Part shown: positions 21,542-52,452 of the stretch, one piece after another | How positions within the stretch are numbered: the stretch's first letter is position 1 | How the letters are laid out: every line of letters starts with the position of its first letter | Assembly: GCF_015852565.1 (NCBI RefSeq) | Contig: NC_136205.1 | Location: forward strand, 3,066,707-3,130,706 | From: Branchiostoma floridae | Taxonomy: Eukaryota | DNA length: 64,000 bases | Direction: 5' to 3' | Program-made: the position numbers and the translations under genes | Notes under the pieces: model-generated | What the model was told of the DNA's origin: nothing | Database searches by the model: none | The model's input: the letters and a program-made list of their open reading frames with translations, nothing else

Positions 21542-21673
21542 ATGGGCGTGTTCCGTGGTTGCCAGGTAACCCTGGAGCTGACAGGTGTCACACTTCCATA
21601 TAAGGAGAAGAAGAGGCTGAGGGAACTCGTCACACAGAATGATGGCATCATCTCTTACATCATCAACAAAAAG
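21542..21673 (+). CDS. PARP4: PARP4 exon 1 (BRCT, N-terminal part)
   Basis: [44 protein letters not shown]. Compare human MGIFANCIFCLKVKYLPQQQKKKLQTDIKENGGKF. Acceptor cctcag directly before the ATG. Donor gtcaga. Confidence 0.85.
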
Positions 21674-34900: not shown

Positions 34901-37900
34901 TTATCTTGTATTACGTAACACTTTGAAAATTGTTTGGCTGAAAGGCTGATATAAAATCAAACTATTATTAAATAAACTGTTTTCTTCCCCTCTGTAGGTT
35001 GTTGTGTTGCAGTCCTATAAGAATGAAAACAATGTTGCCATCGAGGCCAAGTACGTGTTCCCGCTAGATGACATGGCGGCTGTTGTCGGGTTTGAAGCAT
35101 TCATCAACGGGAAGCACGTGGTCGGAGAGGTGAAGGAAAAAGAGGAGGCACATCGCGAGTACCGACAGGCGATCAGCGAGGGACATGGTGCTTACCTCAT
35201 GGACGAAGAAACTCCTGTAAGATTCTTGATGACTTAAATTCAACAGTTATTTTTGCAGTATTAGTACTGTTAGTAGTATTTTGTGTAATAGCATTGTGGG
35301 TAAAACTGTTTGCTTTGTATTTGAGATTTTGTGTGTTCAAACCCCAGGTGAGTCATAATAGAGAATTTTGAAGAAATTATGTCATACAGTTTGATGCAAA
35401 AGAATGTGTACTGCCTTATACAGAGTTTTGGGTCACAACAAAATAGCAATATACAAGAGGGCCAAGTAAGTATCCTGGTGGAACCCCAACCCTAGACCAT
35501 ATATCTTTTGACAAGAAAAACTAAGTTTCCACTGGTCAGTCTGTGAATGTTTTACTACCTTCTTGTCACTGCGCCAACAAACAATGTTTCAGTGTCAAAG
35601 AGGTACATTCAATGACACATATCTTTTACATACAGTGACAATTGTTATGATTTGTGTTTTTCTAGGATGTGTTTACAGTGAGTGTAGGGAACCTGCCCCC
35701 CAGAGCCAGTGTACTGATCAAGATCACCTACGTCGCTGAGCTGGCAGTGGAGGGAGAAAACATCTGCTTCAGACTGCCTGGCAGCGTCGCTCCCTGGCAG
35801 GTGTGTTTGTCTAGAACTTTGTTACCATGGCAACAAGACGTTGTTATCTCCGTGTACGAATGATTCATTCTGTTTTTTTTATATTCTTGGTGTCCGTAGT
35901 TATTTGAATACACTGTCAGTAGATTTTGAGTGTCAGGAAGTGAGTGGGAAAATGGTGTCACAGTGTAAACTTGGGAGAGTGACAGTTCATGAAAGTATCA
36001 GACATGACAGGTCATCGGGTCAATGGAAGAGGCTACTAATTTCACGGGGAGACTATTTTTTTGTCTGTGTATTTGCAGTTATGCATTTTCCACATGCAAG
36101 TCACACTCACTATAGAGTAACAGGAAACAATCATTATTTAATGGACATATAATAAATGTAATAAGGACTTCGAACTCTTGTTTTGGATGTTGAGATAATA
36201 TGTACATTGTATAATGTTTGTTTGATCACAACTAAGATTATTCAAAGATTTTTTAAGCTTAGATTTTCCACCAACAGAAAGATTCACTCTCTGAGAAGAT
36301 CCAAAAGGACCTGGAAACTGTCAAGGTGGAAAAGGATGCTGGGAAAGAATTCTCCCTCCAGGTCGCCATGGAGATGCCCTTTGACATCAGGACCATCCAA
36401 TCACCATCTCACAAAATCAGAGTGAAGGTAGAAATTACTTCCATGACCTGTTTTGACTCAGCCAAGGCACTCTGTTTCTTTGTCACTAACCATTCTGTTA
36501 TAATTACAAAATGTACTTTGAAAATGCTGATGAGCTTTTGCAAACAAAACAATAAAAACAGTCTTGAAAACAATTATCCAATCAGAGGACTAGATTTTTT
36601 TTAGAATGTTCCTAAATAATGTATTGCATGCTCAGAAATGATTAATGTCATCTCTGACTACTGAGGGCATAATTTTTGTCCTGTAATTTTCTTTGATTTT
36701 TCTTGCTATCCTCTTATATTTTATGAATATACTATTAGATGATAAAGCAGTGGTTTGATAATAGATATTACTTCATTCCTCAGTTATGAATTTAGATGAA
36801 ATGGTTATCTGTGTGTAGGGTCAGAGAACGACTCGGCATAATTATAAGTTTCTCTTTATCCCCACCAATCAGAGGACAGCAAGCAAGGCTGTAGTGGAGC
36901 TGGAGAAGAACTGCATGCTGGGAGCTGGTTTCCTGCTGCAGGTTGGGCTGGCTGAGATCCACGTACCCAGGATGTGGGCGGAGCGGCACCCTGACAAGGA
37001 CAGCCAGGTTTGTTGGTTTGTTTGAACTTTAGCATGAAAGCTCATCTGTGTTGGTATAATCGATACTGAAGGTTTTTAATTGTCATTCAACACAAGAAAT
37101 TGCTCTCCTCGAATTTTCGGTAGCACATCCGTCAACCTTTGACAGGAGTGGTGGTTCAATTACTCTAAACATGTGATGTAGGAACACGAATGAAGAATCG
37201 TAGATGCTTGGCAAGCGGTATCGGCCCCCGTCTCTGTTAAGTGTCGGCTAGTGTGATCTTATGTGTATGGCCTCCTTTACCCCCCTCGCGAAGTAATCCG
37301 GTTCAGTATCCAATATTTGTGCTTTGTTTTAACTTTGTTTCTTCATAAAAGCTCAAATTGTCCTGCAGGCTGCTTTTCATTGAGGTCATGAGGGAAGAGA
37401 CAAGGGTCAGACTAAGTGTATAACAGAGATACAATACAGTTAATGATGATATGCATTCTTTGATTAATATCATCATATAGCAGGATATCAGTTGATGATA
37501 CTCTTTCCTCTTTTTATTTGAGGGACTGAAAAAGTCACAAAGTTGTGTTTAAGGGTTGAACTATGCCATCTCTTTTTTTAAACCCTCTTCATTATACACA
37601 GGACTGTGAGGGTCAACAAGTTATACTAAGTCTTATGTGGGGGTGAAGTCTGCTATCTCTAATGATTTTACTTAAAAAAAATCTGTTCATACACAGGCCT
37701 GTATGCTGACCTTCTACCCAGAATTCCAAGCAGAGGTTATGCAGGGTCATGAGGTCATCCTCCTCTTGGACGGGTCCAACTCCATGCGGGGGTCAGCTCT
37801 GGAGGCAGCCAAGAAAGTCGCCCTGCTCTGTCTGTGCCATCTACCAAAGGAATGTAGCTTTAACGTTGTTGCTTTTGGCACAGGTGTGTTCTTAATCATT

Positions 37901-40900
37901 TTCATTTTGAAAACAGATTTGCAATGGAATATGATTCTATTTAACTTTCTTTGGTGCTGATTGGCTATCACACGATGCGGTCTCATTTCAAATGATTCTA
38001 TTTACCTTTCCTTGGTGCTGATTGGCAATCACATGAGGCATTCTCATTTGAAATAATTTTATTTACCTTTCATTGGTGCTGTTTTGCAGATTTGTAACGG
38101 AATACAAAATAGTCTGAAGCTTCTGTACGTTGGTGCAGTCGCTGTAGAAGAGCAATTTGAAAGAGTGCTCAACAAATTTCATCGATGAAATATCAAACGT
38201 TTGATAGGATATAGCCCTTATTCATGTCCTTGTTAGGTATTGTGATGTAACTAGTTTTTCTTTATAAACTTTACAAATTCCATTTTGTAGGATATGAGGA
38301 ACTGTTTGCTGTGAGCCAGTCCAGAACCAAGTCCAATGTCTCTAAGGCTGAAACCTTTATCCAGGTATAGTCTTCATCTCATTGTTATTGAGCATTATAA
38401 CTTATCCCATGTAACTGTCTTTCAAGGTTTATTAGGCAAGAAAACAGTATACTGTTCCTTTTTGTTTGCCATTCTAATGAAATCTTGTTTCATCTGTCCT
38501 TGGTGCTGATTGGCTGTTGCATAGGTAGTCTTCTCCTATGTAATGATTATAAACTTATCTTACCTTGGTGCTTATTGGCTGTGACATAAAGAAGTCCTCT
38601 TTCAAATGATTCTATTTCATCTTTCCTTGGTGCTGATTGGCTATCACATAAGGTGGTCTCATTTCAAATGATTCTATTTCATCTTAAGTTGGGTTCTGAT
38701 TGGCTGTGACATTAAGCAGTCTCCTTTCAAATGATTATATTCTATCTCTCCTTGGTGCTGATTGGCTATTACATGAGCAGTCTCATTTCAAATAATTTTG
38801 TTTTATTTAGTTAATGCTGATGGCTTGGAATTTAGGCAGTCTTCTTTCAGATGGTTCTATTTTATTTCTCCTTGGTGCTGATTGGCTATCACATGAAACA
38901 ATCTCATTTCAAATGATTCTATTTCATCCTACGTTGGTGCCAATTGACTATCACATGAGGCGGTCTCATTTCAAATGATTATATTTCATCTTACATTTTA
39001 CTGATTGGCTGGAACTTGAGGCAGTTTCTTTCGAGTGATTTTATCTAGCTTTCCTTGGTTCTGATTTGCTATCATCTCATGCAATGTTATTAAAACTAGT
39101 CTATTTTATCTCTCCTTGGTGCTGATATGCTATCACGTTGTGTAGTCTTTTATCTAAGTACTAGTTTTATCCCACCATTTATACTGAATGTCTCTTGGAT
39201 AATCCCATTTGATATCTGATTTCTCTTCCCTTACTAAATATCAAAACACAGCAAACCATACACTTTTTGTAGGTGATTTTCAGTAGTGATACATTTGACA
39301 AGAAAGCCATAGAAAGAAAAATGTTCTTACCAATTTCTGCAATTATTTTATCAGAATGTCAAAGCATCCAAGGGAAACACAGATGCATGGAGACCCCTGC
39401 GTGGGTTCTTCCTGCTTCCGCCGTTGGGTAAAACACGGAACGTGTTCCTCATCTCTGACGGACATGTGAACAACCCTGACCAGACTCTGAGCGACATCCA
39501 CCAACATTACCAGGAGACTAGGGTCTTCAGCTGTGGTGTGGGGTAAGGACAAATCTCACAAGATTTTGTGTACTATTCCTTGAACCTTGAACCTTGACCA
39601 TTCAAGATTCAAGATATAACAAATTGATCCTGACTGTCCGTAATAATTAGCAACCAATGACACTACTGGGAGACAAGGGTCTTCAGCTGTGGGGTGGGGT
39701 AAGAATGCATCTCACAAGATTTTGTGTACTGAACTTGATTCTACTGGAAGATACATTTGTAAGTCAATGTGTAACAACAGACAGATCCTGGCTGTCCATC
39801 ACAATTAGCAGTTTAACCAATGATGGTATGGTAATTAGTGTTTAGATTGGCTGCAGTCTCGCAGACATTTGCATTTTTCTGTTTTATATCCTATCTTCTG
39901 CTGGAGGTGGATGGGGCTATATGAGATTGGTCTACTGGTTAAGATTTGGAGACTTACTTCATGACTTTTTAGTTACTTTTGTCACTCTTTTTCAACAATA
40001 ATAATATGTAAGATGGAAATAGAACAATTGAACATCACAAAGTCTGTAGAACTCATATGAAAATGATTAGTTACAGAGATTGCCTTCCAACATAGCAACC
40101 TTCCATTTTTTTTTCATGTAGAATGTAGCAACAACACAATAATTCTTGATGCTTGTTTTTAGGTCAACTTCCAACAAACATTTGCTGCGAGCCTTGGCCA
40201 GGGTGGGAGGGGGCGCCTTTGAGTATTTTGATGATAAAACCAAATCCAAGTGGGAAAAGAAGGTAAAGTCTATCATTTTATATCATGAACATGTAATATG
40301 TTTCATCGTTTCCCATAAAGTTTGCATTGCATGTATATCTTAATCTATATTGTCATTTATCAATAATTACTTTTAATACTCAATTTCATATACTTTATTA
40401 GGCTTTTATGCATTTTGTTATTTATGTATGAATATCAAAACACATAATTCATTACATACTCTCAGGCATACTTTCATACACATGTGCACACATAATTTTT
40501 ATACAAACACACAAACATACACATAGGCACAGAGACACAAACACACACACACACACACACACATACACACACCACTAAGGTCATCTAAGGTCAGGACACA
40601 CATACCTATATGGTATCAAGTTACATATACTAGGGCAGTATGCAACGGAAAGGTATATAAGTGCGAACTTTGTGTCAGCCTCAAACCTCAGAAGATATTG
40701 AATGTGCACAGCAAAACTGGTTTGGCTGACCAGCTAAAAGTTACACACTGAAACTTGTAGCTCCAGATGTCTTACTGAGGGATGACTGCAGTGCAAAATA
40801 TGTTGGTAGCTTAAAGAATGAGTCCACTCAACTTTATACATAATACACACAACACACATAGGTACACAGACACAAACACACACACATACACACACACACA

Positions 40901-43900
40901 CACACATGCACACACATGCATGTACAATCATGTGTACACTGAGAAGATATTAAAGCAAAGCTTAAACCTCAAGTTTACTGTGTTTGATATAGTGACTAAT
41001 ATACATGTAGATGTATCTAAAACCCTGTCAAATTCCTAGGTGAAAGCCCAGCTGTGGAAAGCTGCCCAGCCCGGCCTGACGTCCATGTCAGTTGATTGGC
41101 AGCAGTGGGATGATGATGCCCCGCCTCCTGTCCAGGCCCCCAATCAGATCGTCTCTCTCTTCAACGGTTTCCGTCAAGTGGTGTATGGCTACGTCCCACA
41201 CTGCACTCAGGTCAAAACATTCCAATATACATGTAGTACCTGTCAACTTGTAAACCTGAGTCTGTAAACTTGTAAAATGCAAAACTTTGTACTAATTTGT
41301 ACCAGGTCTCAATGTTGTGCTCTTTGGAATTTAGGCACAATATCCACACTCATCAGAATGAATACCACAGTATCCATTTTTATTAGAATGAATACCTAAC
41401 TGTTGTTAGTGTCACTAAAATGAGTGATGCTGAAGAAGAGTGATGGATGTCACTTGAAATGTCCGTTTTTTTATCCAGTTGTTGGGATTGAATTGTATTT
41501 GAATATTGTTTACCTGGGTGTCCAACCTTCATAAAGGACTTCTCAAACTAATCTGAAACATGGCTAATCATTCTAAAATGAAAAAGTTTGTAATTGAAAT
41601 TACTGTAAATGTATTTAAGTTCGCGGCGATTTAATTTTGCGGGAGTGGGAAATGGACTTTTCACCGTGGTTTTAATTTTGCAGTAACACCATAGACTACA
41701 GTCTAATACCATAAAGAAAAATGTTCGCGGTGGTTTTAAGTTTGCGGTGAGGTGGTCTCCGCGAAAACAGCTAGCATTAATCCACCACGAACATTTCTGC
41801 ATTTACAGTATTGTTTTTATTTATTCCAGGCCACCCTGAAGGCTGTCATCAACAACCGGGAAATCAGCACCATGGTCTCCACCACTGAACTCAGCATCAC
41901 CACAGGCAAGGTGGGACAGGTTTTTGGCTACACCTCTGGGGTGGAGGCCATATTTCTTTTTAATAGCTGGGATTATTTCCTGTAACCAGGCATTTTAATT
42001 TGTTTGTTGATTGTTTATTTAAGGATTGAGACCTATACTAAACATACATGAGCAAAAGAGAAATAAAGCAACAGCTGCAGTAACAACACAGAATAAGAAC
42101 ATTCATACAACATTTTGGCAACTGTCTGTCACCTTCCTCAGAGCAATTCTGAGGGCCACTACACATTTTAGCTAAGGTGTCGCTGCTAGCAATGCACGTT
42201 AGGAACTATGACAGCCATTTATGCGTTCCCAAATATAACATTATACATATAACATATATTGATCACAATGATTGTTGTCATATATAAAATTACAGATGCC
42301 GACAGTCAGTAGATCCTGGTTGTGAATAAAAAAAATGTTACATTATAATAGTGATTTTCCAACCTGACTAAATGATTCAAAGGACTAACCACACAGTTTT
42401 GTCCCAGATCCTGCACCAGCTGACGGCCCGTGCTGTCATCAGAGACTGGGAGGACGGGACCCTGCATGCAGACAGGATGCACCATGAGGTCAGCGTGTTC
42501 TAAATCCTGACATTGAGAATCAGTGTGGTATTCCTCATGTCATGTGTGGCTGTGCTGGGTGGTTGTCTTTGTAGTACCGTAGCACAGTTTTCGTTGCTCA
42601 TTTGTACATTCTGCGGTCATGATCTTCTAATGGTTGATAGGTCTTTGGCTCATGAAAAAGTGGTATAATTTTGGGCCCTCTGGCAGCTTTTTTTAAACTG
42701 TAGGAGGCGATGTTTGAAAAAAAGAGTAAGGCAGGTAGGGGTTGACGGATTGTCACAATTTTTGCTATGTAGATGGCTTAAGAGATAATTGACATACTTA
42801 GTTGGCTTGTGTAAAGGGGTATAGTTTGGGGCTCTTTGGCAGCTTTTTTTGTAACTGCAGGAGCAGGATCTTCATGAATTTTGGTTAAAAAAAAACTTTG
42901 TAGATGGCTTTAGAGATAATTGACATGCTTATCTTTCTCTCTTTTTTTCCAGACAAAGAAAATGGGTCTGAAGCCGTACATTATCGACCTTAGTAAGGAG
43001 TACTCCATCGTCACACAGTTCACCAGCTTTGTAGCTGTGGAGAAGCGGGAAAAGGTGAGAAAAATTTTGGTGACACCAAGGGAACAGAACTTGTACTTGT
43101 AACAGTTACTGTAAGTGTGGAAATAACTCATAAGCCAGAGCGAAAAAAAAAAAAATCCATGAAAACAAAAATTCTGCCAAACCACAGGACTAAACATCCA
43201 GACCATTTTTTCCCAGGCTTGGTTTGTCTTATGGTCCACATCCAGTAAACCTGTAAGATACAATCATCGCCATTTCAATAAATATTTATTCATTTATTGC
43301 TATTCTTGTTCAAAGAGGGGAACGCCCCATGCCCTGACCATTTGCCCCCTTACCCTGAGGAGCGGATCCTCTGACAGTTATAAAATTCTGATTAACCAGG
43401 GGTAGTTTAAGGACAAACGTGGGCATAGTTTGTTTGTTTTTTGAGAAAAGGGGAAAAGCAACACACTCACGGATGTTATTCATAGAATGAAGTCAGTGTG
43501 GCCTATGACATAATGATTGTTTGATGCAGGATGAAGATCTGACTACCGGTGAGGGTCCAAGCATCACAGAACTGGTGGAAAAAGAGAGTGTGGACATCCT
43601 ATCCTACATGGGATGGGAGAGGGACAAAGGGGAAGAGGAGGCAGAGGAAGTGTATAAGGTATGAGCCAAATTAAAGTGGAATTTTGGCTTGCTTTAAAAT
43701 GAAAGATTTTTGTGAAGAAAATCAAGTACGTGTGCCTTAAATTTTTTGACTGGACATCGCATAGTTTCTTGTATTCAATTTCTAGAATAAAGTGCTTGAT
43801 GGACAGATCACAGAAAAGGCCATTGAACACAGCTTGGAGTTCTACACCACTGCAGTGGAGACTGCAAAAAGGGAGCTTCCCCCAACCCATCCAACAGTGT

Positions 43901-46900
43901 TGCAGTCACAGCTCTCTTTGGCAATGTTTTATCACAACAAATTGAATATGCAGGACAAGGCCTGCCTGGTTGCAAAGGCTGCCTTTGACGATGCGATCGC
44001 GGAGTTGGATACTCTGAGCAAGGAAAGCTACAAGGACTCGACCTTGGTGATGCAGCAGTTGAGAGACAACTTGACATTGTGGTCTGCTGAGGACGGGGAA
44101 GAAGAGAAAAAAGCCAACGAAAAGAAAAAGGTCCTTATTCCTAGTGTCAACCATAGCTCACTTTGGCTAATCAACCTTCTCGGATGAAGCCCATCTTACA
44201 TACCCAACCATGGCCTCGCGACCTTCTCCAGACCATGGTTGGGAGTTAAGCCCCTGTCACACATAGCCGACCATGCCCTCCCAACCTTCTTCAGACCATG
44301 GTCAGGAGTTAAGCCCTTGTCTTACATACCTGACCATGGCCTCCCAACCTTCTCCAGACCATGGTCAGGAGTTAAGCCCTTGTCTTACATACCTGACCAT
44401 GGCCTCCCAACCTTCTCCAGACCATGGTCAGGAGTTAAGCCCTTGTCTTACATACCTGACCATGGCCTCCCAACCTTCTCCAGACCATGGTTGGGAGTTA
44501 AGCCCGTCTTACATACCCAACCATGGCCTCGCGACCTTCTCCAGACCATGGTTGGGAGTGAGACCATCAGTAATTTGGACCAGACCAAACTTGGCAAAGT
44601 CATATTCTTCTAAGGTGCAAGCAGATTGGTAAAATGGAATATGGTTGGTAGCAAGTCATTGAAAGGTCCTGAATTTGTGACAGGGGATGTGACTAGTACA
44701 TAATTTTGCATGGAAACGGGAATAGACCGACTGAGTGTGCTTGTTAAAACTAAGAGTAGATTATCTTCAAGACCAGAATCTTCAAATTACCAATTGAATT
44801 TATCATAACTTTTCTATATTTGATGTTGTCAACAGGTCATAGAGGAAGTTTATTATGAAGAGGTTTTAATGGGAGGTAAGATACCAATTAATCTTTAATT
44901 TACATTTAGTTTAACCTTGTATTAAGTTGGAATTTATTGAATGGTTGATCATGAGATTTCAACACCAAGGACTCTATTGAAATGCACATCTTGATTTTGT
45001 TTTGGTATTTTTATTTTCCAACTTCTAGACTTGGATGATTTTGACATGGAGGACCCTGAGTATCTAGAAATGGGAGGTGCTGGTGTTTCCTCCAGCACAG
45101 AGGAGACAGAATCTGATGACTCGTGGGGATCAGATTCAGATCTAGATGAAGAGAGTGAATGTGAGGAAGGTAAGAAACTAGTTGGAAATCTTTAACGATG
45201 TATCTGCCCATCATTGCCAATCATCATCATCATATCTTGTCGCTCCATCTCCTTATCCAGCTGCGGGCTGCCTCATTGGCCTCTCTTAAGCTAAGGGCAC
45301 AACCTGCCGTACATACAATTTGTCTGTATGTTTTTTTAGGCCACGTTCCCCACATATGTCTGGAAACGCTTCGTCCGTACTGGCACATAGGGGGGCAAAT
45401 CCGCAGCCCGAGGGCACACAAAGTTTTGCCTGCACGTAAAGTTCTACAGCGTGTCTGCGTGCTCCGTCGGATTCTCTACGAGTTTGTATGGAGGCGGTAC
45501 TTACCACTTACGGATCCCAAAAGATTGCCCACGTATTTGCATGTACAGCGGGCTGTGCCCTTAGCTTTAGGTCACTGTCCGAGCAGGTTGGGCCAAGTTC
45601 ACAGTTTTGTAACAGATGTTGTATTGTTTGCAGCTCTGCTCAGTATGGGCAGGCTGCACTTGCAGATTTGTCCAATTTCATTTCCAATAACGTTTTCCCT
45701 AGAGTTTTGTTTATTTGATGTTTTTGGTTTTGATGTTGCTTAGACTGGAGATGGTTCGCTAGACCTAGTGGTTGACCAGTCAGGTTTGACTCACTGTGGA
45801 CTGCATATTTACTTTTGAATTATTCTATTGTAAATGCCCATATGGTTGTTTTATGTTCACAGTTTCACTGTTGCCGCTTTACCACATACTCAAACCACTA
45901 GGAACATTTCTCCATGACAGTAAATTGTTGCTACAGTATATGGTGCTATTGCATGTGAACTCAAAAAGTCCATTTTCCTGCTTCTGCAAAATCAGATCCC
46001 TGCAAACTTAATTGCATGTACTGTATCTTGTTCACAGGAGGTAAGGAAACAGTAAGAAAGAAAGATTCATCATCACCAGAGGAGGAAGAGAGTGAAGAAG
46101 AGATGGGGTTTGGATTGTTTGATGATGGTGAAGGTAGGATGGCAGGTGAGATGGTAGAGTACTGTAAATCTTGAGATGCATGGTTTTCATGGTGACATCT
46201 CCACCATGATACAATCGCCATACAAACAGCCCGGCTGGGCCCTGGGTTATAGAAATGTGACTTAGTCCTTACTGTTACCTAGTTTAATAAAAGAGACAAC
46301 GAAAAAGAACTGCAGTCAAAAATCATACTTTTGACACTTTTTGTTGGGCTCCGTTTTTCAAAGACACTAACTCTTGAATCTTTCTATTTCTTCAACAGCT
46401 GCTGATGAAAAAGAGGGTTCTCCTCTTGCTGATACTTATCAGATGAAGGCTAATGCCTTGCAATTGGAAAAAGGTCGATTTGCATCTCCCATGAGGTCTA
46501 GATCAAGGTCAAGGTCAGATAAACATTCCTCTCCAGCATACAGCCCGACATCTCCAGCATATAGCCCAGCATCTCCAGCATATAGCCCGACTTCACCTAC
46601 TGAGGAAGCCACAGAGGCTGAGTACACAAAGCCTAAACCTCTAGCTCGGAAAATGGCACCAAAACGGGTCGAAAAGGAGAAGGCACCAAGCCCACACTTC
46701 TCAAAGATGTCTGCAACGTTCTTGACCCGAGAATCTGAAAGGGGAAAGTCCTCATACAGAGTGTCAGATGAAGTTCAGGCTCGTGTAGATCGCCTTGATG
46801 ATCTAGTAGAAAAAGCTGATGCTCTTAGTGCACAAGCTGCAATATTTGGTGCTTCAACAACCATTTCTAAAGATGATGGCCTCTTTGCCGGTTCAACAGA

Positions 46901-49900
46901 GGCAAGTGTGCAGAAACCTAAACCTTTTGAATCCAAGCCAGGTATCGTTCAACCTGCCAGATTTACTTATGAAGCAACACCAGATACTACCAAGGGTCTT
47001 TTTGGCAGAAAGGCTGAACCAGAGACTGCAGGGTTTGCTCTTGCCCAGTCTGTGGCCGCAGAAGAGCCAGCTCCTGCTTTTGGTTTTGGAGCTCCAGTTG
47101 CAAGCTTTGGTGCAGAAACTTATGGAACTCGTGGTGTAGACTTGGATGCACCCATACCGTATGGCAAAATCCCAGTTGGTGGAACGCCGTTTGGTGAAAC
47201 GCCAGTTAGTGGAAAGCCGTTTGGTGAATCTGCTGTAAAGTTTGGAGGTCCTCCTGGCACTGTAGCTGGCACAAAGACGCAAGAGACTGCATTTGGTCAG
47301 GGTTTTGGTTATGCTTCAAGTCGTGGTGTAGGCTTTGGTAAAGCAACATTTGGTGAAGCAACATATGGCACACCATTTGGTGGAACACCATTTGCTGCAA
47401 CCACAGGTCTTTTTGCCCACTCAACTGCACCAAAGGATCAGGAAGCTGTGTCATTTGGTTTTGCTCCCTCTACTGACCAGAGCACAAGGGGTGGTGGAGG
47501 ATCCGCAGGTGGTTTTAGCTTTGGTTGGACTGCATCATCAGATTTGGGACAGAGGGATCGAGACAGGAGCTCCCCCCTAATTGGTGACACAAAAAAAGGA
47601 TTCAAGTTTGGAGCCTCACTTGAAGAGAAAGAAGAAACAGCAAGCTTTAGCTTTGGTGGATCCAGCCAGAAAGTGGTTCCTCAAGCAGGTTTTGGAGCTG
47701 ATCAACAGATGCAGCAGCAACAACAGCAACAACAACAACAGGCTCAGATGAATGTCTCTGATACTGCTCCTCAGAGGAAGATGCGAAGCAGGCTTCATGG
47801 CGCTATAGCTACCTTAAGTGAATCCAGTCAAGCAGAAATGGTTCCTGAAGCAGGTTTTATCTCCAATCAACGGATGCAGCAGCAACAGGCTCAGATGGAT
47901 GTTCTTCTTACTGCTCCTCCGAGGACAGGTGGTGGAAGGGTTCATGGCGCTTTAACTAGATTAGACGAATCCAGTCAAGCAAAAGTGGTTCCTCAAGCAC
48001 GTGTTGGCTCTCGAGCTCCTCAAAAAGCGAGGAAGACAACTGGCGGCAAGGCTGTTAGAGTTTCTTCAGGATTCAAGGACAGCTTGGACATCGTAGACAA
48101 GAGTTCACGCGACACTGGTGACTCTTGGAGAGCTGTCAAACGGACCGAGACCCCCATGGCTGGTTATTTTGACATGAGGGCCATGTCCCCTGCCTCAACA
48201 AATTCTGCACAGTCAGTTGCTTTTCAACAGCTGTCAGCATCTGCTGCCTTTCTACAGGCACCCCCTCCTGCGCCACCCCCTTGTTCAACAGGCCCCCCTC
48301 CTCTTCCACCCCGCTGCCCAGCAGGACCCCCTCCTCCAGCTGGTGCCCCTCCCCCACCACCACCACCCCCTAAGGGCATTCAGCTTCTTAAACCAAGAGC
48401 AAGTTTAAAGTCCAAAGCAGTAATGGCAGCACCCATGCGTGCACTATCCATGCCCTCGAAAGAATATGCCCCATTGCCCCCTCCTCCTCCAAGTTCAGTC
48501 GAACAGGCACCAGAGCTACCAGCATGGGATAGAGAAGAAGAACTGCAAATGGGGATTGTTGAAGAAAGCCGTGCAATTGCTTCGTATGAACAGATGGAAG
48601 AGTTAAAACCATTGTCAAGAAGTTTGGAATTGAGACAAAAGAAGAAAAAGAAACAGTTCGAAATCCAGGCAAGGTTGGAGGAAGAAAAGGTATCATTGGA
48701 CAAAGTCATGTACATGGATGAAAGCGTTCAAGAAGGAGAGGAAATGTACAGGTAAGAGTGAAGTCAACAAAGTACAGTCTCTACCTAATTAGATGAATGT
48801 GAAATTTTCCACAAATCGGGGGAATATTTTATCTGAGAGCTTGCAATTGCCTGGTTAATGTAGTACAGGCTTGTCCGCTGAAGATTGTAACTTGTAACTG
48901 TAGCCCTTTGGCCAATTTCTACTGATTTTTCACATAAACCACAGTCTCATAGGGACTAAATGAAATGTTTGATTTATGTAATTGTGGCAAACATGTTGCC
49001 TACCTGAGCTTTTCAAAGGAAAAATGTAAAGTTTCAATAAAGTTAACGTAAATTACTTTCAAGGACCAATTTAGGGACTATTCTTGACAATTGAACTACA
49101 TGTAAATCCAAGGTTACACAAAGCTTACCATAAAAGTGTACAACTTGTGATAACAGTCATTATTTTCCACATAAAGCAGTGTTCAAGTTTGTGGGCACGG
49201 GTCAATGGTATGCAAATGTATTGTGTCGTCTTAACTTTATTCTTTAAAGTAGGGGTTCTTTGCATTGAGCAATTTCATGATATTCATACAATGCCACATC
49301 GTTGTAAACACCACAGAAGACAGTATCTCTTTTGTTTAGTATTTTTGTTTGATGTCAGCCTGTTGTTACATGATTGTGTATAATTATGCCTTTGTCATCT
49401 TGTTCATGACTTTTGTAACATGTATTACAAACTTTATTTCAGGACCAGTTTGAGGGGGTTTTACGGTCCAAGAAGAGGTCCCGGTGCATATCACTCTGCC
49501 AGCTTTCATCTAACCTCAGGTAGGTTAATCAATTCATGTGCAAAGTAAGGCTAATATCAGTAGTCTAAGACTAGATGGAGAGCTTTTTTATATAGTCATC
49601 CAAAGATCTAAACTTCATTGAAATATCATGATAGGACCGTTGATCATTGAAATAGCATTGAAAGATGTTGTAGGTCACTAAAATATCATTAGTAAGACCA
49701 TACTTCAAATGGGGGCATGGGTTCGTATCCCACTTCTGACACCATATTGGCTTAGAGATTATCTCAGTCGTAGACTTAAAATGCTCAACATTTCTTGTCC
49801 CAAAGAACTAATTGCCAAGGTACAATGGACCTGTAAATACTGTACACAGTGTCCATCTTACCTGTCATGACCAGTGCAGATGTTAGTAATGACTGACTAA

Positions 49901-52452
49901 GAAAAAAGAAATTGCACAAATGTCTAATCTGAAAAATGATGCTCACAAGTAATCATGTTTTTTTTCAACCCTCTGCAGGTTCCTTTAGTGGAAGAGAAAT
50001 TGATGTAGTACCTGTCGTGACCACAAGGGGGAGGGTCATCACAGAGACAACTGTTGACCAAATCTTTGCACTGCTAAAGGTATCATTTGTAATTATTGGT
50101 TCAAATATAAAGTATAGTAGCTCTAGTTTTAGAGTGATGAATTACTGTAACATTAACACTGAATTTATTCTTTTTTGAGTGGGAGATTAGAATTGGTCTT
50201 GCACCCATCCATAATTTGACTGTTTTTTTGACAGTTTACTGCGTACTCGGATGCCAAAATGTTCTTTTATTCTTTATTGCAGGCGCTAATAGGCCCATAG
50301 TAAAAGCCTACTGTATAAGACACACAACATAACATAGATATTAAAACAACAATGCCACTCTATGTGTACAAGCGCCTCCTGATGTTTTTGAAATATTATT
50401 GTGTTATGGTAGAAAGAATCCAACTAGATGGAATGGGAAGAGTGGAAAAGCGGAATATACAAAAGAACGTTTGCGTCATGATAGAGTAATATTAGCATAG
50501 ATAATACCATAGTTTACTCATATAGCTAAAACCCAAGGATAAAACAATCAAATTTAATTATATTGCCCCCCTCCCCAGCACACTGACCAGGGGCTCTCCT
50601 ACTGGGAGTTCAGTCCAGAGTTAGACGAGTTGCTTGGGATTTCCAGTCAGCAGTGCATCCAGATATTTAACACTGCAGGACTCAAATCTCTGGGTAAGAT
50701 CTCATTCATGATCATGGTCATAAGGATATGTGTCCATACATGTAGTCAGGTCAGATGACAACTGTTTCCCTCCTGTCAACAGTCTTTCAGCCTGCAAAAA
50801 GAATCTTCACATCTATTTCCTTGCATGATACTAAGTAATTTTCGCAAACCCATCAACTTAGTTCATTGCCTAGAAGTGGTCAAATGGTCTTGCTTTGATC
50901 AAGCCATATTGCATTAACAAAAGGTAAAGAAATGAAATAAGGAATGAATGAAGACCTTTATTCTACATTTTTGCCCAACTGAACTAAGCACAGGTCACAA
51001 GAAAGACAAAACACACAATGTTATGCAAAAGTACAATATTATTTGTATCATAGATCTAATCTAGTGAAGAAGTTTGGCTTCTTCTCCCTTCCTGGTAATG
51101 GTAAAAATGTAGGCTTGTATGTTGTTAGGTTTGTCAAAATGCAACTCATATCTATTAAGTGAATCTACTTCCTATTTCTATCATTAACATAGTGCATAGT
51201 CCAATCAACAACGAAGTGAACTTCATCTTCATTTATCTTCATCTCCAGGTGTGAATGTTGCCAGGCAGATACTGCAGCTGGTGGCCACCTTTGAACAAGC
51301 TCGTACAAAAAACATTGAAAAATACCTTTAAGTTAGCACTGAGTGGGACATAATTTTTTATTTTTATTTTGATCTCCAGGTGCGAATGTTGCCAGGCAGC
51401 TGCTGCAGCTGGTGGCCACCTTGCTGGTTGTGCAGCTGCTGATGCTGCACCTGCCGCAGCTGTTCCCCAGCTGCAGGAGCCTGCTGCACCTGGATGTGGC
51501 GCAGGTGCCGGCCAAGTGGTGCAGTGCATTGCAGCAGGTGCTCACATGGGCCAAGGTAGGATTTTGTACTACAAAACTACCAAAACTAGACTGAGTTTGT
51601 ACTACAAAAACTTAATTTGTATACACTTGTTGCAAGAAGAGGAAAGAGACATGTAAATGATAGATGTAATAATAGTGGCGCAGGCGTCAGCCACTTGGTG
51701 CAGCACACTGCAACAGGTGCTCACATCGGCCAAGGTAGGAGTTACCTACTGATAATATGAGGGGCAATCAATAAGTTTACACAGAAAAAAGGTGCACAAC
51801 TCAAATTTTGGAGCATTATAAACTATATGAATGTGCACCAAAATTCAATGGGCCAAGGTAGGAGTTGGCTACTTAGTATGAGGGGTGATCAATAAATTCT
51901 TGGACTCATGAATAAAGGTGCTTAACTCAGATTTTGGATCTGATGTAAAGTATAAAGTATTATATGAATTTGTACCATAATTCAAATCATTGTGATCATT
52001 ATTGTACAGGCAACACCCAGTAATGGTAGGTAAGAGAGAAGAAAAAACATGGACAATTGAGCTGCAAGCTGAGGTGTGCATGTCAACTTGTTCTGCTAAA
52101 TGTCGGATACTAATAAAAGAATTAGGCACTGAAGAGGACGAATTTGAAAGAGAAATCAAGAAGCTTAAGATCACACCAATGTTCACTCATCAGGTATAAG
52201 CTTTGTTGTACTGTTGACCAATCGCTTACGTGACATGAATTATGAGGAAGACTGCAGTTGAAATTTCTATGTACTATTTTCTTGTGGTGGAACAAAATTT
52301 TAATTCTGTTATCATATAAATCTATTCGTTTATTAATTTTTCTATTTTCACAGAGTGTTGACACGATGCACCCATCAGTGTACTCCCGTTTGGAGCTTGG
52401 GAAGAGTTGGGAGGACCTGACCACAAAGCTGATCGGTGTCAGCAATGCATAG
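21542..52452 (+). CDS. PARP4: Gene model (39 coding exons): vault poly(ADP-ribose) polymerase (PARP4/VPARP) homologue. Domains: BRCT, PARP regulatory and catalytic, VIT, vWA, long disordered mosaic linker, C-terminal vault-interaction region.
   Basis: Colinear by-eye similarity to human PARP4 across all globular parts. Examples: [119 protein letters not shown]. All exon phases are consistent. ATG at 21542, TAG at 52450-52452. Confidence 0.9.
22171..22366 (+). CDS. PARP4: PARP4 exon 2 (BRCT, C-terminal part)
   Basis: [65 protein letters not shown]. ttctag/gtaatt. Confidence 0.85.
22636..23133. mobile_element. Foldback element with about 230-bp arms and a central G36 homopolymer (PARP4 intron 2)
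   Basis: Left arm cattatagagaattgctaaactttcattccaacac... The right arm is its reverse complement, ending at 23133. G-run at 22904-22939. Confidence 0.8.
23247..23545 (+). mobile_element. 5'-truncated copy of the SINE-like element seen at 11360-11900
   Basis: gggcatgttcgggcatga...ggaagtcctcctag...gcatctgctgg..cacacgttgcatacagttg is colinear with 11567-11815. Confidence 0.7.
23715..23775 (+). CDS. PARP4: PARP4 exon 3
   Basis: (A)[19 protein letters not shown]. ttccag/gtaagg. Phase 1 to 2. Confidence 0.7.
23978..24101 (+). CDS. PARP4: PARP4 exon 4
   Basis: [41 protein letters not shown]. Compare human QDFEVAKYNTLEK. cttaag/gtgagt. Confidence 0.75.
24484..24615 (+). CDS. PARP4: PARP4 exon 5
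   Basis: [44 protein letters not shown]. taacag/gtgaga. Confidence 0.75.
24762..25111. mobile_element. MITE with cagggctcgaaat termini (intron 5)
   Basis: 13-bp perfect TIR. The interior holds many gggtgcac repeats. Confidence 0.65.
25290..25454 (+). CDS. PARP4: PARP4 exon 6
   Basis: [55 protein letters not shown]. taccag/gtaagt. Confidence 0.75.
25835..26005 (+). mobile_element. Interspersed repeat family B copy (intron 6)
   Basis: Colinear with 8363-8535. Confidence 0.7.
26092..26229 (+). CDS. PARP4: PARP4 exon 7
   Basis: [46 protein letters not shown]. Compare human VSDLVEMIWAEALGHLEHML. ctgtag/gttcgt. Confidence 0.8.
26893..27069 (+). CDS. PARP4: PARP4 exon 8 (PARP regulatory/helical domain)
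   Basis: [59 protein letters not shown]. Compare human AEGILLLVKAALKNGETAEQLQKMMTEFYRLIPHK...KKADLCQ. Confidence 0.85.
27073..27426. mobile_element. hAT-type MITE (family D), copy 2, inserted 3 nt into intron 8
   Basis: 16-bp perfect TIR cagggctctagccagc / gctggctagagccctg. 8-bp TSD gtcaggta at 27065-27072 and 27427-27434. Confidence 0.85.
28013..28176 (+). CDS. PARP4: PARP4 exon 9 (regulatory to catalytic junction)
   Basis: [54 protein letters not shown]. Compare human LIRDMVNVCETNLSKPNPPSLAKYRALRCKIEHV. Confidence 0.85.
28199..28382. repeat. (GAGT)n microsatellite, intron 9
   Basis: gagtgagtgagt... for about 180 bp. Confidence 0.95.
28694..28885. mobile_element. Foldback MITE, intron 9
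   Basis: ccccctcacattag...gagtctgcgagctctaaattacgaggaggcatgaccctga, with its reverse complement forming the second arm. Confidence 0.7.
29065..29173 (+). CDS. PARP4: PARP4 exon 10 (catalytic; His of the H-Y-E triad)
   Basis: [36 protein letters not shown]. Compare human VLQIFRVGRVNETTEFLSKLGNVRPLLHGSPVQ. Confidence 0.85.
29363..29391 (+). CDS. PARP4: PARP4 exon 11 (29-nt microexon)
   Basis: AQNFVGILS. Compare human NIVGILC. tttacag/gtaggc. Needed for frame continuity. Confidence 0.75.
29827..29922 (+). CDS. PARP4: PARP4 exon 12 (catalytic; Tyr of H-Y-E)
   Basis: [32 protein letters not shown]. Compare human [31 protein letters not shown]. Confidence 0.9.
30280..30605 (+). repeat. Two extra tandem copies (152-bp period) of the acceptor and 5' half of PARP4 exon 13 (pseudo-exons)
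   Basis: Copies start at 30302 and 30454; the real exon starts at 30606. Both extra copies diverge after GATGTGTA into TCAACACGGCATCGATTCCTAA, which gives an in-frame stop. Confidence 0.85.
30606..30789 (+). CDS. PARP4: PARP4 exon 13 (catalytic)
   Basis: [62 protein letters not shown]. Compare human LSTSIKYSHPGETDGTRLLLICDVALGKCMDLHEKDFSLTEAPPGYDSVHGV. Confidence 0.9.
31017..32610 (+). mobile_element. 5'-truncated non-LTR (LINE) retrotransposon: reverse-transcriptase C-terminal part plus 3'UTR, in PARP4 intron 13, same orientation as the gene
   Basis: ORF 31113..32291, open upstream to 31017. RT motifs: [44 protein letters not shown] (YxDD). (CAAA)n tail at about 32595-32610. Confidence 0.85.
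32794..32837 (+). CDS. PARP4: PARP4 exon 14 (catalytic Glu of H-Y-E)
   Basis: [14 protein letters not shown]. Compare human DDEFVVYKTNQVKM. ttacag/gtatgt. Confidence 0.85.
33018..33185. mobile_element. MITE family C, intact copy (intron 14)
   Basis: Termini acagtagaagcca ... tggcttctactgt. Colinear with the split copy at 18330-18488 and 19697-19712. Confidence 0.75.
33803..33921 (+). CDS. PARP4: PARP4 exon 15
   Basis: [40 protein letters not shown]. Compare human KYIIKFSMPGDQIKDF. Confidence 0.85.
34405..34541 (+). CDS. PARP4: PARP4 exon 16 (VIT domain start)
   Basis: [46 protein letters not shown]. Compare human AGLQDASGNLVPLEDVHIKGRIIDTVAQ. Confidence 0.85.
34998..35216 (+). CDS. PARP4: PARP4 exon 17 (VIT)
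   Basis: [73 protein letters not shown]. Near-identical blocks to human PARP4. Confidence 0.95.
35666..35800 (+). CDS. PARP4: PARP4 exon 18 (VIT)
   Basis: [45 protein letters not shown]. Compare human [26 protein letters not shown]...ATVAPWQ. Confidence 0.95.
36278..36427 (+). CDS. PARP4: PARP4 exon 19
   Basis: [50 protein letters not shown]. Compare human QSFSLTMSIEMPYVIEFIFSDTHELKQK. Confidence 0.85.
36873..37007 (+). CDS. PARP4: PARP4 exon 20
   Basis: [45 protein letters not shown]. Compare human RTDCKAVISTMEGSSLDSSGFSLHIGLSAAYLPRMWVEKHPEKESE. Confidence 0.9.
37697..37883 (+). CDS. PARP4: PARP4 exon 21 (vWA domain with MIDAS DxSxS)
   Basis: [62 protein letters not shown]. Compare human ACMLVFQPDL...VIICLDCSSSMEG...VNIIQFGT. 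Confidence 0.9.
37925..38090. repeat. About 60-bp minisatellite with a ggtgctgattggct core (CCAAT-box-containing), intron 21 block
   Basis: Three units. Same family as 38480-39175. Confidence 0.8.
38291..38364 (+). CDS. PARP4: PARP4 exon 22 (vWA)
   Basis: [25 protein letters not shown]. Compare human GYKELFSYPKHITSNTMAAEFIMS. Confidence 0.85.
38480..39175. repeat. About 60-65-bp minisatellite (about 11 units) with a ccttggtgctgattggct core, intron 22
   Basis: Repeated tcatttcaaatgattctatttcatct(t/c)tccttggtgctgattggctatcacat units. At least ten intact ATTGG (reverse CCAAT) across both blocks. Confidence 0.85.
39355..39542 (+). CDS. PARP4: PARP4 exon 23 (vWA)
   Basis: [63 protein letters not shown]. 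Compare human MGNTDFWKTLRYLSLLYPARGSRNILLVSDGHLQDE...RLFACGIG. Confidence 0.9.
40163..40262 (+). CDS. PARP4: PARP4 exon 24 (vWA end)
   Basis: [33 protein letters not shown]. Compare human STANRHVLRILSQCGAGVFEYFNAKSKHSWRKQ. Confidence 0.9.
40505..40572. repeat. (CA)n microsatellite, intron 24
   Basis: acacacacac run. Confidence 0.9.
40843..40922. repeat. (CA)n microsatellite, intron 24
   Basis: cacacacaca run. Confidence 0.9.
41040..41210 (+). CDS. PARP4: PARP4 exon 25
   Basis: [57 protein letters not shown]. Compare human SVSVKWQQLNPDVPEALQAPAQVPSLFLNDRLLVYGFIPHCTQ. Confidence 0.9.
41405..41535 (-). mobile_element. Interspersed repeat family B copy, reverse orientation (intron 25)
   Basis: The reverse complement matches gacacccaggtaa...caactgga...cggacatttcaag of the 8363-8535 type. 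Confidence 0.55.
41601..41810. mobile_element. MITE family A, full copy, 20 bp upstream of the PARP4 exon 26 acceptor
   Basis: tactgtaaatgtatttaagttcgcgg ... cacgaacatttctgcatttacagta. Confidence 0.8.
41830..41910 (+). CDS. PARP4: PARP4 exon 26
   Basis: [27 protein letters not shown]. Compare human [27 protein letters not shown]. Confidence 0.9.
42408..42488 (+). CDS. PARP4: PARP4 exon 27
   Basis: [27 protein letters not shown]. Compare human MIHKLAARALIRDYEDGILHENETSHE. Confidence 0.9.
42953..43054 (+). CDS. PARP4: PARP4 exon 28
   Basis: [34 protein letters not shown]. Compare human [34 protein letters not shown]. Confidence 0.9.
43530..43658 (+). CDS. PARP4: PARP4 exon 29
   Basis: [43 protein letters not shown]. 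Compare human VSELIAKEDVDFLPYMSWQGEPQE. 129 nt, phase 0-0. Confidence 0.85.
43786..44130 (+). CDS. PARP4: PARP4 exon 30 (candidate cassette): in-frame exon encoding the C-terminal half of a 14-3-3 protein
   Basis: [115 protein letters not shown]. Compare 14-3-3 zeta [71 protein letters not shown]. tttctag/gtcctt. 345 nt, phase 0-0. Confidence 0.65.
44185..44575. repeat. 63-bp minisatellite (about 6 units) immediately 3' of the 14-3-3-like exon
   Basis: Unit gttaagcccttgtcttacatacctgaccatggcctcccaaccttctccagaccatggtcaggag. Unit starts at 44308, 44371 and 44434. Confidence 0.9.
44836..44875 (+). CDS. PARP4: PARP4 exon 31 (40 nt; acidic, Tyr-rich)
   Basis: [13 protein letters not shown]. caacag/gtaaga. 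Shifts the phase from 0 to 1, as required to enter exon 34. Confidence 0.6.
45029..45169 (+). CDS. PARP4: PARP4 exon 32 (acidic linker)
   Basis: [47 protein letters not shown]. ttctag/gtaaga. Phase 1-1. Confidence 0.6.
46038..46133 (+). CDS. PARP4: PARP4 exon 33 (acidic linker with a ribosomal P-stalk-tail-like motif)
   Basis: [32 protein letters not shown]. ttcacag/gtagga. Phase 1-1. Confidence 0.6.
46399..48751 (+). CDS. PARP4: PARP4 exon 34: 2.35-kb exon encoding a low-complexity/disordered region (RS run, CTD-like heptads, FG repeats, polyQ, H3-tail-like peptide, polyPro)
   Basis: Part of track ORF 46374..48755. Acceptor ttcaacag at 46391-46398, donor ACAG|gtaaga at 48751/48752. Phase 1 in and phase 2 out, matching the neighbouring exons. 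Confidence 0.8.
49443..49519 (+). CDS. PARP4: PARP4 exon 35
   Basis: (R)[25 protein letters not shown]. tttcag/gtaggt. Phase 2 to 1. Confidence 0.65.
49979..50079 (+). CDS. PARP4: PARP4 exon 36
   Basis: [34 protein letters not shown]. ctgcag/gtatca. Phase 1 to 0. Confidence 0.7.
50579..50693 (+). CDS. PARP4: PARP4 exon 37 (C-terminal vault-interaction region)
   Basis: [38 protein letters not shown]. Compare human QTEDGFWKLTPELGLILNLNTNGLHSFLKQKGIQSLG. Confidence 0.85.
51380..51555 (+). CDS. PARP4: PARP4 exon 38 (C-terminal region)
   Basis: [59 protein letters not shown]. Compare human VKGRECLLDLIATMLVLQFIR...ISRNIPWAFEAIKQASEWVRR. Confidence 0.8.
52354..52452 (+). CDS. PARP4: PARP4 exon 39 (terminal, with stop)
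   Basis: [32 protein letters not shown]. Compare human QYPSICPRLELGNDWDSATKQLLGLQ. ttttcacag acceptor, phase 0. Confidence 0.85.
   Translation, partial: SVDTMHPSVYSRLELGKSWEDLTTKLIGVSNA

Follow-up and report, generated by a model that had tools for sequence, protein, structure and literature searches.

A predicted pseudo-14-3-3 remnant with a conserved C-terminal hairpin in lancelet PARP4

PARP4-like proteins (clade 5) carrying VIT and vWA domains together with an appended 14-3-3 domain were described in 2014 as a 'third type' from four amoebae, Capsaspora, sea urchin and the lancelet Branchiostoma floridae, some of them adding an actin or a ubiquitin-related domain (Perina et al., 2014, DNA Repair 23:4; PMC4245714). 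The DNA analyzed here, referred to as the window, is a stretch of 64,000 nt of the B. floridae genome (contig NC_136205.1, forward strand, positions 3,066,707 to 3,130,706). On its plus strand it contains the PARP4 (vault PARP) gene of this lancelet, including a 345-nt exon at 43786-44130 that encodes the C-terminal part of a 14-3-3 protein. The gene has the same architecture as the type of Perina and co-workers, and its 14-3-3-homologous segment occupies the same position, directly after the VIT-vWA core and within the same polypeptide. The combination of PARP4 with 14-3-3 was already known since 2014, lancelet included, and the claim of a first-pass annotation, made from the letters of the window alone, that no PARP4 has such a domain does not survive comparison with that paper. 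The passage concerned reports domain annotations and does not itself describe a lancelet copy made up of helices F-I only, the loss of phosphate-binding residues, a constraint limited to helices H and I, or the company of motifs resembling the RNA polymerase II C-terminal domain (CTD), the C-terminus of the ribosomal P-stalk and phenylalanine-glycine (FG) repeats (Perina et al., 2014). The details that are new are the pseudo-14-3-3 status of the element, its stepwise trimming, the confinement of the constraint to the hairpin of helices 8 and 9 (H and I), and the accompanying suite of motifs.

The second system that bears on this locus is the activation of bacterial toxins by 14-3-3. Helices 8 and 9 of 14-3-3 and their turn suffice to bind and activate the ADP-ribosyltransferase (ART) domains of ExoS and ExoT; together with the central beta-sheet of the ART fold, the two helices enclose a hydrophobic core, and the same interface binds trehalase (Karlberg et al., 2018; PMC6141617). 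This cofactor surface is the segment that is kept canonical in PARP4, although the system of Karlberg and co-workers consisted of a free dimeric 14-3-3 and bacterial toxins of the R-S-E type, whereas the PARP4-borne hairpin is known here from sequence; the comparison was made at the level of helices, the text of that paper giving no residue-level list of the ExoS interface. As for the host protein, human and other vertebrate PARP4 is orthologous, with BRCT, PARP, VIT and vWA domains, a long disordered exon and a C-terminal region that interacts with the major vault protein (MVP). From positive selection in mammals, the disordered exon has been proposed to be a host-pathogen interface (Daugherty, 2014).

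The exon is open in frame 1 and comprises 115 codons between phase 0 boundaries; gtattcaatttctag stands directly before it and gtcctt directly after, giving the borders tttctag/AAT for the acceptor and AAG/gtcctt for the donor. Its coordinates, length, phase, splice sites and translation are as first described. A second in-frame acceptor, ggacag/ATC at 43806/43807, lies 21 nt within the exon and is the one used in the annotation of Branchiostoma lanceolatum. The Pfam 14-3-3 profile (PF00244) matched the exon with E=1.2e-30 and 107 bits (cutoff 33.2 bits), over profile positions 128-223 of 223 only, and a phmmer search of all PDB chains with the exon product returned 14-3-3 proteins only (best E ~1e-33); the C-terminal 14-3-3 identity that had been recognized by eye is thereby upheld. 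With human 14-3-3 zeta as tblastn query, residues 126-231 matched 43774-44091 (E=4e-30), and nothing resembling residues 1-125 was found anywhere in the 64-kb window, as had been supposed of the N-terminal half. Only helices F-I of the nine-helix (A-I), cup-shaped monomer are thus encoded. The 18-residue C-terminal signature of the 14-3-3 family, which lies in helix I, is present with two substitutions. Identity to human zeta is 7/19 in helix G and 23/28 in the H-I loop and helix I, in keeping with the earlier impression of a diverged helix G beside conserved helices H and I, and three unrelated fusion proteins have the same pattern of a diverged G and a retained H-I.

The host gene was mapped by tblastn with the PARP4 of B. 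lanceolatum (P0241), 1331 of whose 1363 residues were covered by about 30 exon-sized high-scoring segment pairs at 21542-44094. This map, together with synteny, domain content and catalytic motifs, identifies the gene of the window as Branchiostoma PARP4. The B. lanceolatum locus has the same EGF-repeat gene upstream, and the domain order is BRCT, PARP_reg, PARP catalytic, VIT, vWA, 14-3-3 remnant, a long disordered tail and a C-terminal MVP-ID-like region. Pfam domains of the B. lanceolatum model are PARP_reg, PARP, VIT, vWA and 14-3-3; the BRCT domain is assigned to the window from the Pfam BRCT of other PARP4-like relatives and from a match of the N-terminal part at 21542-21673 with 95% identity. 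The models of B. lanceolatum and Branchiostoma belcheri carry a precomputed PF26156, which the hmmscan library used for the relatives did not report. The catalytic exons carry KFHSS, GIYFSD and DDEYVIY, which we take to be motifs of the H-Y-E type by their resemblance to those of PARP1. In an exhaustive protein search, the alignment with B. lanceolatum PARP4 (CAH1248284.1) ran unbroken across the exon with 86% identity, and B. belcheri parp4 (KAI8502339.1), in which helices H-I are followed by the tail, was found at 74% identity. A search with the spliced query against an index of 5.8 billion proteins gave no near-identical match; the matches listed were all shorter than about 900 residues, and full-length PARP4 proteins may be missing there. 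Neighboring exons join in frame with or without the 14-3-3 exon, leading into a tail of about 1225 codons that extends to at least 51555. The description of 43786-44130 as an in-frame, 14-3-3-derived coding exon of a PARP4 homolog is borne out by these joins and by the B. lanceolatum protein. Of the two exons that had been quoted as enclosing it, the PARP4 identity stood and the position did not: both lie upstream (42953-43054 and 43530-43658), and the true downstream exon is at 44836-44875.

The public annotation of the B. lanceolatum locus (OV696701.1, 10001-42086; L004) splits PARP4 into two models, the first of which stops after the 14-3-3 exon while the second begins at 38030; a conserved tail open reading frame (ORF) of 754 codons (36047-38311) and three smaller tail exons are left unannotated. 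In the window, partial duplicates of the C-terminal exon 51380-51555 flank that exon at 51229-51291 and 51675-51745, and both align to the same B. lanceolatum exon.

The case for use of the exon is one of evolutionary comparison. In the comparison of the window with B. lanceolatum, alignment is confined to exons; the 14-3-3 exon aligns gap-free over 315 nt at 85% identity, and its flanking introns are unalignable. By the method of Nei and Gojobori, the ratio of nonsynonymous to synonymous substitution (dN/dS) against B. lanceolatum is 0.30 for the exon (dS 0.58), and by part it is 0.28 (helices F-G), 0.07 (helices H-I) and about 1.1 (charged tail); when all three lancelet pairs are considered, the values for helices H-I are 0.07-0.13. 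In B. belcheri, similarity to the window begins exactly at FDDAIAELD (window 43984, equivalent to 11668 of the B. belcheri locus L005) and amounts to 86% over 149 nt; upstream of this point B. belcheri has unrelated sequence and an acceptor of its own. The exon as a whole has an ortholog in B. lanceolatum, and B. belcheri keeps its helices H-I without F-G. Among relatives with few introns (L001, L003), the 14-3-3 segment lies in one continuous ORF with the 'QFTSFVA(V/I)E' strand of PARP4, and a further relative (L002) has an intron at exactly the position of that in the window. The constraint that had been suspected from the appearance of helices H and I is reflected in these values, which indicate that purifying selection maintains the exon and is strongest on helices H-I. 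An untranslated relic, or a piece of an independent nested transcript, would suit the weakness of the donor; against this, three species have an open frame, dN/dS values lie at 0.07-0.30, conservation ends at the exon borders, the sequence offers neither a start codon context nor an N-terminal half for a stand-alone 14-3-3, and the relatives have a contiguous ORF with PARP4 sequence. Such a relic or nested transcript is very unlikely. By these comparisons, 43786-44130 is a genuine, selectively maintained exon of lancelet PARP4, and it is almost certainly translated. The B. belcheri exon (JALCYT010000026.1, 11590-11890) extends 25 codons beyond the end that is conserved among lancelets, to a strong donor, CCC/GTAATG.

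In 14-3-3 zeta, K49, R56, R127 and Y128 are taken here as the phosphate-binding residues and N173 as a residue of the groove (zeta numbering). Both in the window, where position 173 is S, and in three environmental fusions, the four phosphate-binding residues are missing and N173 is replaced; the full-length copies of dictyostelids have K49D, R56-/Q, R127G/D and Y128I/A. The dimer-forming helices A-D are missing from the animal copies. Since the phosphate-binding residues are lost and helices A-D are missing, the remnant would not be a phosphopeptide-reading dimer, and the lack of both dimer interface and phosphate-binding triad noted from the letters alone is confirmed. Helices F-I of canonical 14-3-3 are homologous to the remnant and superpose on its modeled fold at about 1 A; unlike canonical 14-3-3, the remnant sits inside a protein of >2000 residues, without helices A-E or a dimer interface, and with V176 and E180 substituted in addition to N173 and to the loss of K49, R56, R127 and Y128, such that it cannot be a dimeric phosphopeptide clamp. 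Judged by these residues, the element is a pseudo-14-3-3, and not a phospho-reader, in every fusion examined. What is kept in all fusions, from protists to lancelets, is FDDAI.ELD.LSE.SY..(S/T)TLI(M/L)Q..RD.LT, that is, helix H, the turn and helix I: across the fusions, identity to zeta is 21-27/28 in the H-I loop and helix I and 4-7/19 in helix G.

The dictyostelid proteins listed by Perina et al. (2014) were recovered as Heterostelium album EFA82859.1, Cavenderia fasciculata EGG19008.1 and Dictyostelium purpureum EGC32742.1. In the first two, the Pfam 14-3-3 domain is near full profile (positions 7-220 and 4-223 of 223; E=4e-22 and 2e-26, respectively). The full-length dictyostelid domain implies that the fusion involved a whole 14-3-3 domain before the split of animals and amoebozoans, and that the half domain of the lancelet results from later loss; the original interpretation, in which the exon was captured from the 3' part of a 14-3-3 gene, is therefore abandoned. 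The same fusion occurs in unrelated eukaryotes of environmental origin (P0002/L001, P0025/L003 and P0005/L002). In sponge, cnidarian, sea-urchin and mollusc PARP4 only a decayed helix F-G relic, 'LP.THP', is found, and vertebrate PARP4 (P0163) has no recognizable 14-3-3 element after its '...Y(V/M)SW' linker. On this distribution the fusion predates the split of animals and amoebozoans, and trimming has proceeded in steps: full length in dictyostelids, F-I in the window and B. lanceolatum, H-I in B. belcheri and none in vertebrates.

Recent uptake by lancelet PARP4, in that lineage only, of 3' exons from a canonical 14-3-3 gene, or of a retro-fragment, would account for the presence of the C-terminal half alone in the window and for the near identity of helices H-I to canonical 14-3-3. 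It is contradicted by the occurrence of the same fusion at the same place in dictyostelids (full-length), environmental protists and other animals, by the decayed 'LP.THP' remnants of sponge, cnidarian, sea-urchin and mollusc PARP4, and by a derived residue that the lancelets have in common: all three read MQQLRD, with Q at position 220, where canonical 14-3-3 has MQLLRD. The shared MQQLRD indicates vertical descent and argues against gene conversion, and a recent capture is given next to no probability.

Two sequences met in the course of these comparisons may be recorded. In L002 (a JGI 3300046527 contig from a related animal), an intron after AFD splits the 14-3-3 remnant at 1444-2178, and an actin N-terminal fragment follows about 90 codons past it (Pfam Actin positions 2-64, E=1.4e-13). 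A 208-residue '14-3-3 protein epsilon-like' of Mytilus trossulus (P0064) is a stand-alone, divergent 14-3-3 with R127Q, and its helix G, LSLSAFYHD, is nearer to LSLAMFYHN of the lancelet remnant than canonical 14-3-3 is.

An AlphaFold model of the linker exon with the 14-3-3 exon consists of four helices that superpose on 14-3-3 helices F-I with a root-mean-square deviation of 0.6-1.2 A, the linker being of low confidence. MAFFT paired the linker with 14-3-3 helix E ESKVFYLKMKGDY, and its motif was for this reason considered as a diverged helix E; the pairing is a probable artefact, and the reading was dropped because the motif is also found in vertebrate PARP4, which has no 14-3-3, and because the confidence of the modeled linker is low.

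The explanation proposed is that a 14-3-3 domain joined PARP4-like proteins after their VIT-vWA core and was then trimmed stepwise. The exon would neither read phosphopeptides nor dimerize; instead, it would present, where the long disordered tail of PARP4 begins, an imitation of the C-terminal hairpin of 14-3-3, and this hairpin would serve as a phosphorylation-independent docking surface for proteins that recognize this face of 14-3-3. The role of the hairpin as a docking or mimic surface is deduced from its conservation by analogy. Taken as a whole (a real PARP4 exon, an ancient pseudo-14-3-3 and a conserved hairpin used for docking), this explanation is regarded as moderately probable.

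Several observations weigh against it. The docking function draws on conservation and on one structural paper, which concerns bacterial toxins. A four-helix fragment (in B. belcheri, a two-helix fragment) may fail to fold as an intact 14-3-3 does; the AlphaFold model is moderately confident (mean pLDDT 73), and the fold check is partly circular, since the alignment used by the model contained canonical 14-3-3 proteins. The inclusion of the exon in mRNA is argued wholly from sequence comparison, and, of the 11 donors in this region of the gene, its own, AAG/GTCCTT, is alone in lacking a purine at +3. The corresponding donor of B. lanceolatum, AAG/GTGCTT, is also weak, and the annotation of that species continues past it, reaching a stop after 17 codons of intron sequence, and splits the gene. 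A U12-type intron was considered as the cause of the odd donor and rejected, given that GTCCTT does not fit the U12-type consensus, /RTATCCTT.

The weak donor raises the further alternative that the exon serves as a last exon in some transcripts, which would enter the intron and encode a short isoform of BRCT, PARP, VIT, vWA and 14-3-3 remnant without the tail or the vault-targeting C-terminus; this form may coexist with one in which the exon is internal. The weakness of the donor in both the window and B. lanceolatum speaks for it, as does the end of the B. lanceolatum model 17 codons into the intron, equivalent to a read-through of 18 codons in the window. However, no plus-strand AATAAA occurs from the exon to 46286 (none between 43792 and 46285), the read-through peptides are not conserved (VLIPSVNH... 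vs VLAPELPQ...), the downstream tail exons are all conserved and in frame in three species, and the exon of B. belcheri reaches its strong donor and continues into the tail. A short isoform is accordingly thought unlikely.

Helices 8 and 9 of 14-3-3 might also act in cis, the hairpin binding the ART domain of PARP4 itself, or of a vault neighbor, and stabilizing or gating it as 14-3-3 chaperones ExoS and ExoT. Such regulation would build on the contact that these helices make with the ART fold's core and on their sufficiency for activation (Karlberg et al., 2018; PMC6141617), and the module and the PARP catalytic domain are found in one polypeptide in every relative whose sequence reaches the N-terminal part. 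Nevertheless, ExoS and ExoT belong to the R-S-E toxin clade and PARP4 is an H-Y-E enzyme, from which it follows that the ART interface need not transfer to PARP4, and the PARP4 proteins of vertebrates, cnidarians and sea urchin, which are without helices H-I, still keep the PARP domain. Regulation in cis is judged quite unlikely.

Returning to the docking surface, the hairpin is followed in the same polypeptide by further segments that resemble parts of core cellular proteins (Table 1); the large tail exon also contains an RS stretch. In an alignment of the indel-rich tail from three lancelets, the invariant islands are the look-alike motifs. Their scores were compared with a null of 1000 locally shuffled tails, against which eleven other peptides were not significant, eight of them controls and the others actin, ubiquitin and calmodulin, which were not expected in the window. 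A tblastn search of the window found no fragments of these three. Four motifs were chosen by eye before testing, and their p-values are for that reason post hoc. The matches to the histone H3 tail and to SNARE proteins are weak (z about 4.5); for the synaptobrevin-like block, BLAST found nothing and Pfam gave sub-threshold matches (E=0.056 and 0.004), making it a weak lead only. Among relatives, C-terminal matches to Pfam Ribosomal_60s were obtained (E=5e-4 and 1.8e-5), the second of these values belonging to the tails of Heterostelium and Cavenderia, in which the YSPTSPS heptad occurs seven times in perfect form, along with three copies of the DEDMGFDLFGDY type. Complete ubiquitin is present in PARP4-like proteins of Sinanodonta and Biomphalaria and in P0340 (E=1e-13 to 1e-16), an actin fragment (Pfam positions 2-65) in those of Nematostella, Hydra, Mytilus, sponges and L002 (E=1e-12 to 1e-13), and EF-hand or calmodulin pieces in PARP4 models of a rotifer and Mytilus, these gene models being unverified. 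The PARP4-like protein of Lytechinus pictus (XP_054753684.1; P0247) has a very long FG-like repeat array of the SQGSLFGG type at its C-terminus; the final residues, LSLARMIPIILFIAIIGA, are hydrophobic and resemble a tail anchor.

14-3-3, actin, ubiquitin and calmodulin are classical host cofactors of bacterial toxins. It may be that the hairpin and the tail look-alikes mimic host proteins that toxins or effectors of pathogens bind or need, their capture leading to the PARP domain or the vault and hence to ADP-ribosylation, sequestration or sensing. PARP4-like tails recurrently hold pieces of 14-3-3, actin, ubiquitin and calmodulin or EF-hand proteins, and Pol II CTD heptads, P-stalk C-termini and FG repeats as well; the mimics remain canonical while their flanks evolve fast. 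The part of the 14-3-3 remnant that is constrained is exactly the surface used by 14-3-3-dependent ART toxins (Karlberg et al., 2018), and the disordered exon of PARP4 has its own proposal as a host-pathogen interface (Daugherty, 2014). Against such a role as bait or decoy, the argument is one of resemblance, with post hoc p-values for motifs first picked by eye and with weak H3-like and SNARE-like matches; some of the domain combinations depend on unverified gene models (e.g. the EF-hand fusions of Mytilus and rotifer), and there is a detection bias in that fragments of ultra-conserved proteins are the easiest to recognize. The role is considered doubtful, with some weight left to it. A search of the searchable literature for the motif suite or a decoy idea in PARP4 found nothing beyond the 14-3-3, actin and ubiquitin-related domains of Perina et al. 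(2014).

In its wider form, which is equally tentative, the hairpin would be one element of an ancient array of look-alikes in PARP4 tails, from amoebae to chordates, that baits toxins, effectors or other enzymes targeting cellular hubs and couples their capture to ADP-ribosylation or to sequestration in vaults. The resemblances suggest that the array includes 14-3-3 helices 8-9, a ubiquitin with LRLRGG at its end, the N-terminus of actin including the D-loop, lobes of calmodulin, CTD heptads, the P-stalk C-terminus, FG-nucleoporin repeats and WH2/poly-proline, and possibly histone H3-tail and R-SNARE motifs. The new details of the lancelet locus lend support to this speculative idea. The integrated decoys of plant nucleotide-binding leucine-rich repeat (NLR) proteins are likewise fragments resembling conserved pathogen targets that are carried by a protein with an effector or enzymatic module; the analogy is of concept only, as PARP4 has no NLR and its pieces are mostly short motifs in a disordered tail.

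Table 1. Positions of the PARP4 gene, its 14-3-3 remnant and the look-alike motifs of its tail in the window.
Feature	Position	Strand	Remarks
Lancelet PARP4 (vault PARP, clade 5)	21542-52193 (at least)	+	3' end not fixed; last junction, 52010-52193, uncertain
Exon ending the VIT-vWA core	42953-43054	+	34 residues; splice sites and frame; conserved in all PARP4-like relatives
Linker exon	43530-43658	+	43 residues, phase 0-0; family-wide motif SI.EL..KE.VD.L.YMGW; 85% nucleotide identity to B. lanceolatum; low AlphaFold confidence
14-3-3 exon	43786-44130	+	345 nt, 115 codons; 14-3-3 helices F-I and charged tail; phase 0-0
Helices F and G of the remnant	43807-43977	+	diverged; groove residues N173S, V176M, E180N; dN/dS 0.28; absent from B. 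belcheri
Helix H, turn, helix I	43978-44082	+	35 residues; strongly constrained core, equivalent to 14-3-3 helices 8 and 9
Acidic/basic tail of the exon	44083-44130	+	16 residues; evolves freely, dN/dS about 1.1
Weak donor and read-through	44131-44187	+	GTCCTT, then 18 codons to a stop
True downstream exon	44836-44875	+	13 residues, ends in phase 1; conserved in B. lanceolatum
Acidic tail exon	45029-45169	+	in frame; aligns with B. lanceolatum
Tail exon with P-stalk C-terminus look-alike	46038-46133	+	look-alike of 18 residues at 46073-46126
P-stalk C-terminus-like motif	46073-46126	+	score 79 vs null maximum 53; conserved in three lancelets
Large disordered tail exon	46399-48751	+	orthologous ORF of 754 codons intact in B. 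lanceolatum
Pol II CTD-like heptads	46530-46598	+	23 residues; score 113 vs null maximum 64
R-SNARE-like block	46767-46856	+	30 residues, like VAMP2 residues 51-80; score 53 vs null maximum 51 (just outside)
FG repeats	46878-47669	+	in large tail exon
Histone H3-tail-like motif, RKTTGGKA	48015-48059	+	15 residues, like H3 residues 3-17; score 53 vs null maximum 51 (just outside)
Poly-proline	48261-48371	+	in large tail exon
C-terminal conserved exons	49443-49519, 49979-50079, 50579-50693, 51380-51555	+	match the PARP4_MVP-ID region of orthologs; 81-89% nucleotide identity to B. lanceolatum

Other features of the window were noted. Upstream of PARP4, on the opposite strand, the multi-exon EGF-repeat gene (1500-10200, minus strand) is syntenic with B. 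lanceolatum. About 8 kb past the last mapped PARP4 exon, an intronless ORF of 408 codons (60018-61244, minus strand) matches PF20706, 'Family 4 glycosyltransferase in conflict systems', over nearly the whole length (E=3e-77); an adjacent ORF of 280 codons (62805-63647, minus strand) has no Pfam match. Within PARP4, a 152-bp unit is repeated 2.8 times at 30278-30706 with 97% identity and duplicates the 5' part of a PARP catalytic-domain exon; the third copy alone (to 30789) runs into the full exon, and the repeat goes back either to tandem duplication of recent date or to an artefact of assembly. A non-LTR (long terminal repeat) retroelement reverse-transcriptase ORF (RVT_1, E=6e-19) lies in a PARP4 intron at 31113-32291 (plus strand). 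A 63-bp tandem repeat (44194-44559; 5.8 copies, 91% matches) fills the intron directly 3' of the 14-3-3 exon, and further arrays of 61-62 bp occupy 37931-39136 in another intron.

For the function of PARP4 and the vault, these findings matter in that the element appears not to be a working 14-3-3, but one whittled down, in one lancelet, to a 35-residue, almost invariant hairpin of helix 8, turn and helix 9. The hairpin that is kept corresponds to the face of 14-3-3 that binds ADP-ribosyltransferase toxins, and further invariant segments resembling core proteins accompany it. If such pieces do act as baits, the tails of PARP4 would amount to a catalogue of pathogen targets in eukaryotic cells over a billion years, and vaults and PARP4, whose function has been unclear for decades, would gain a concrete and testable role in innate immunity.

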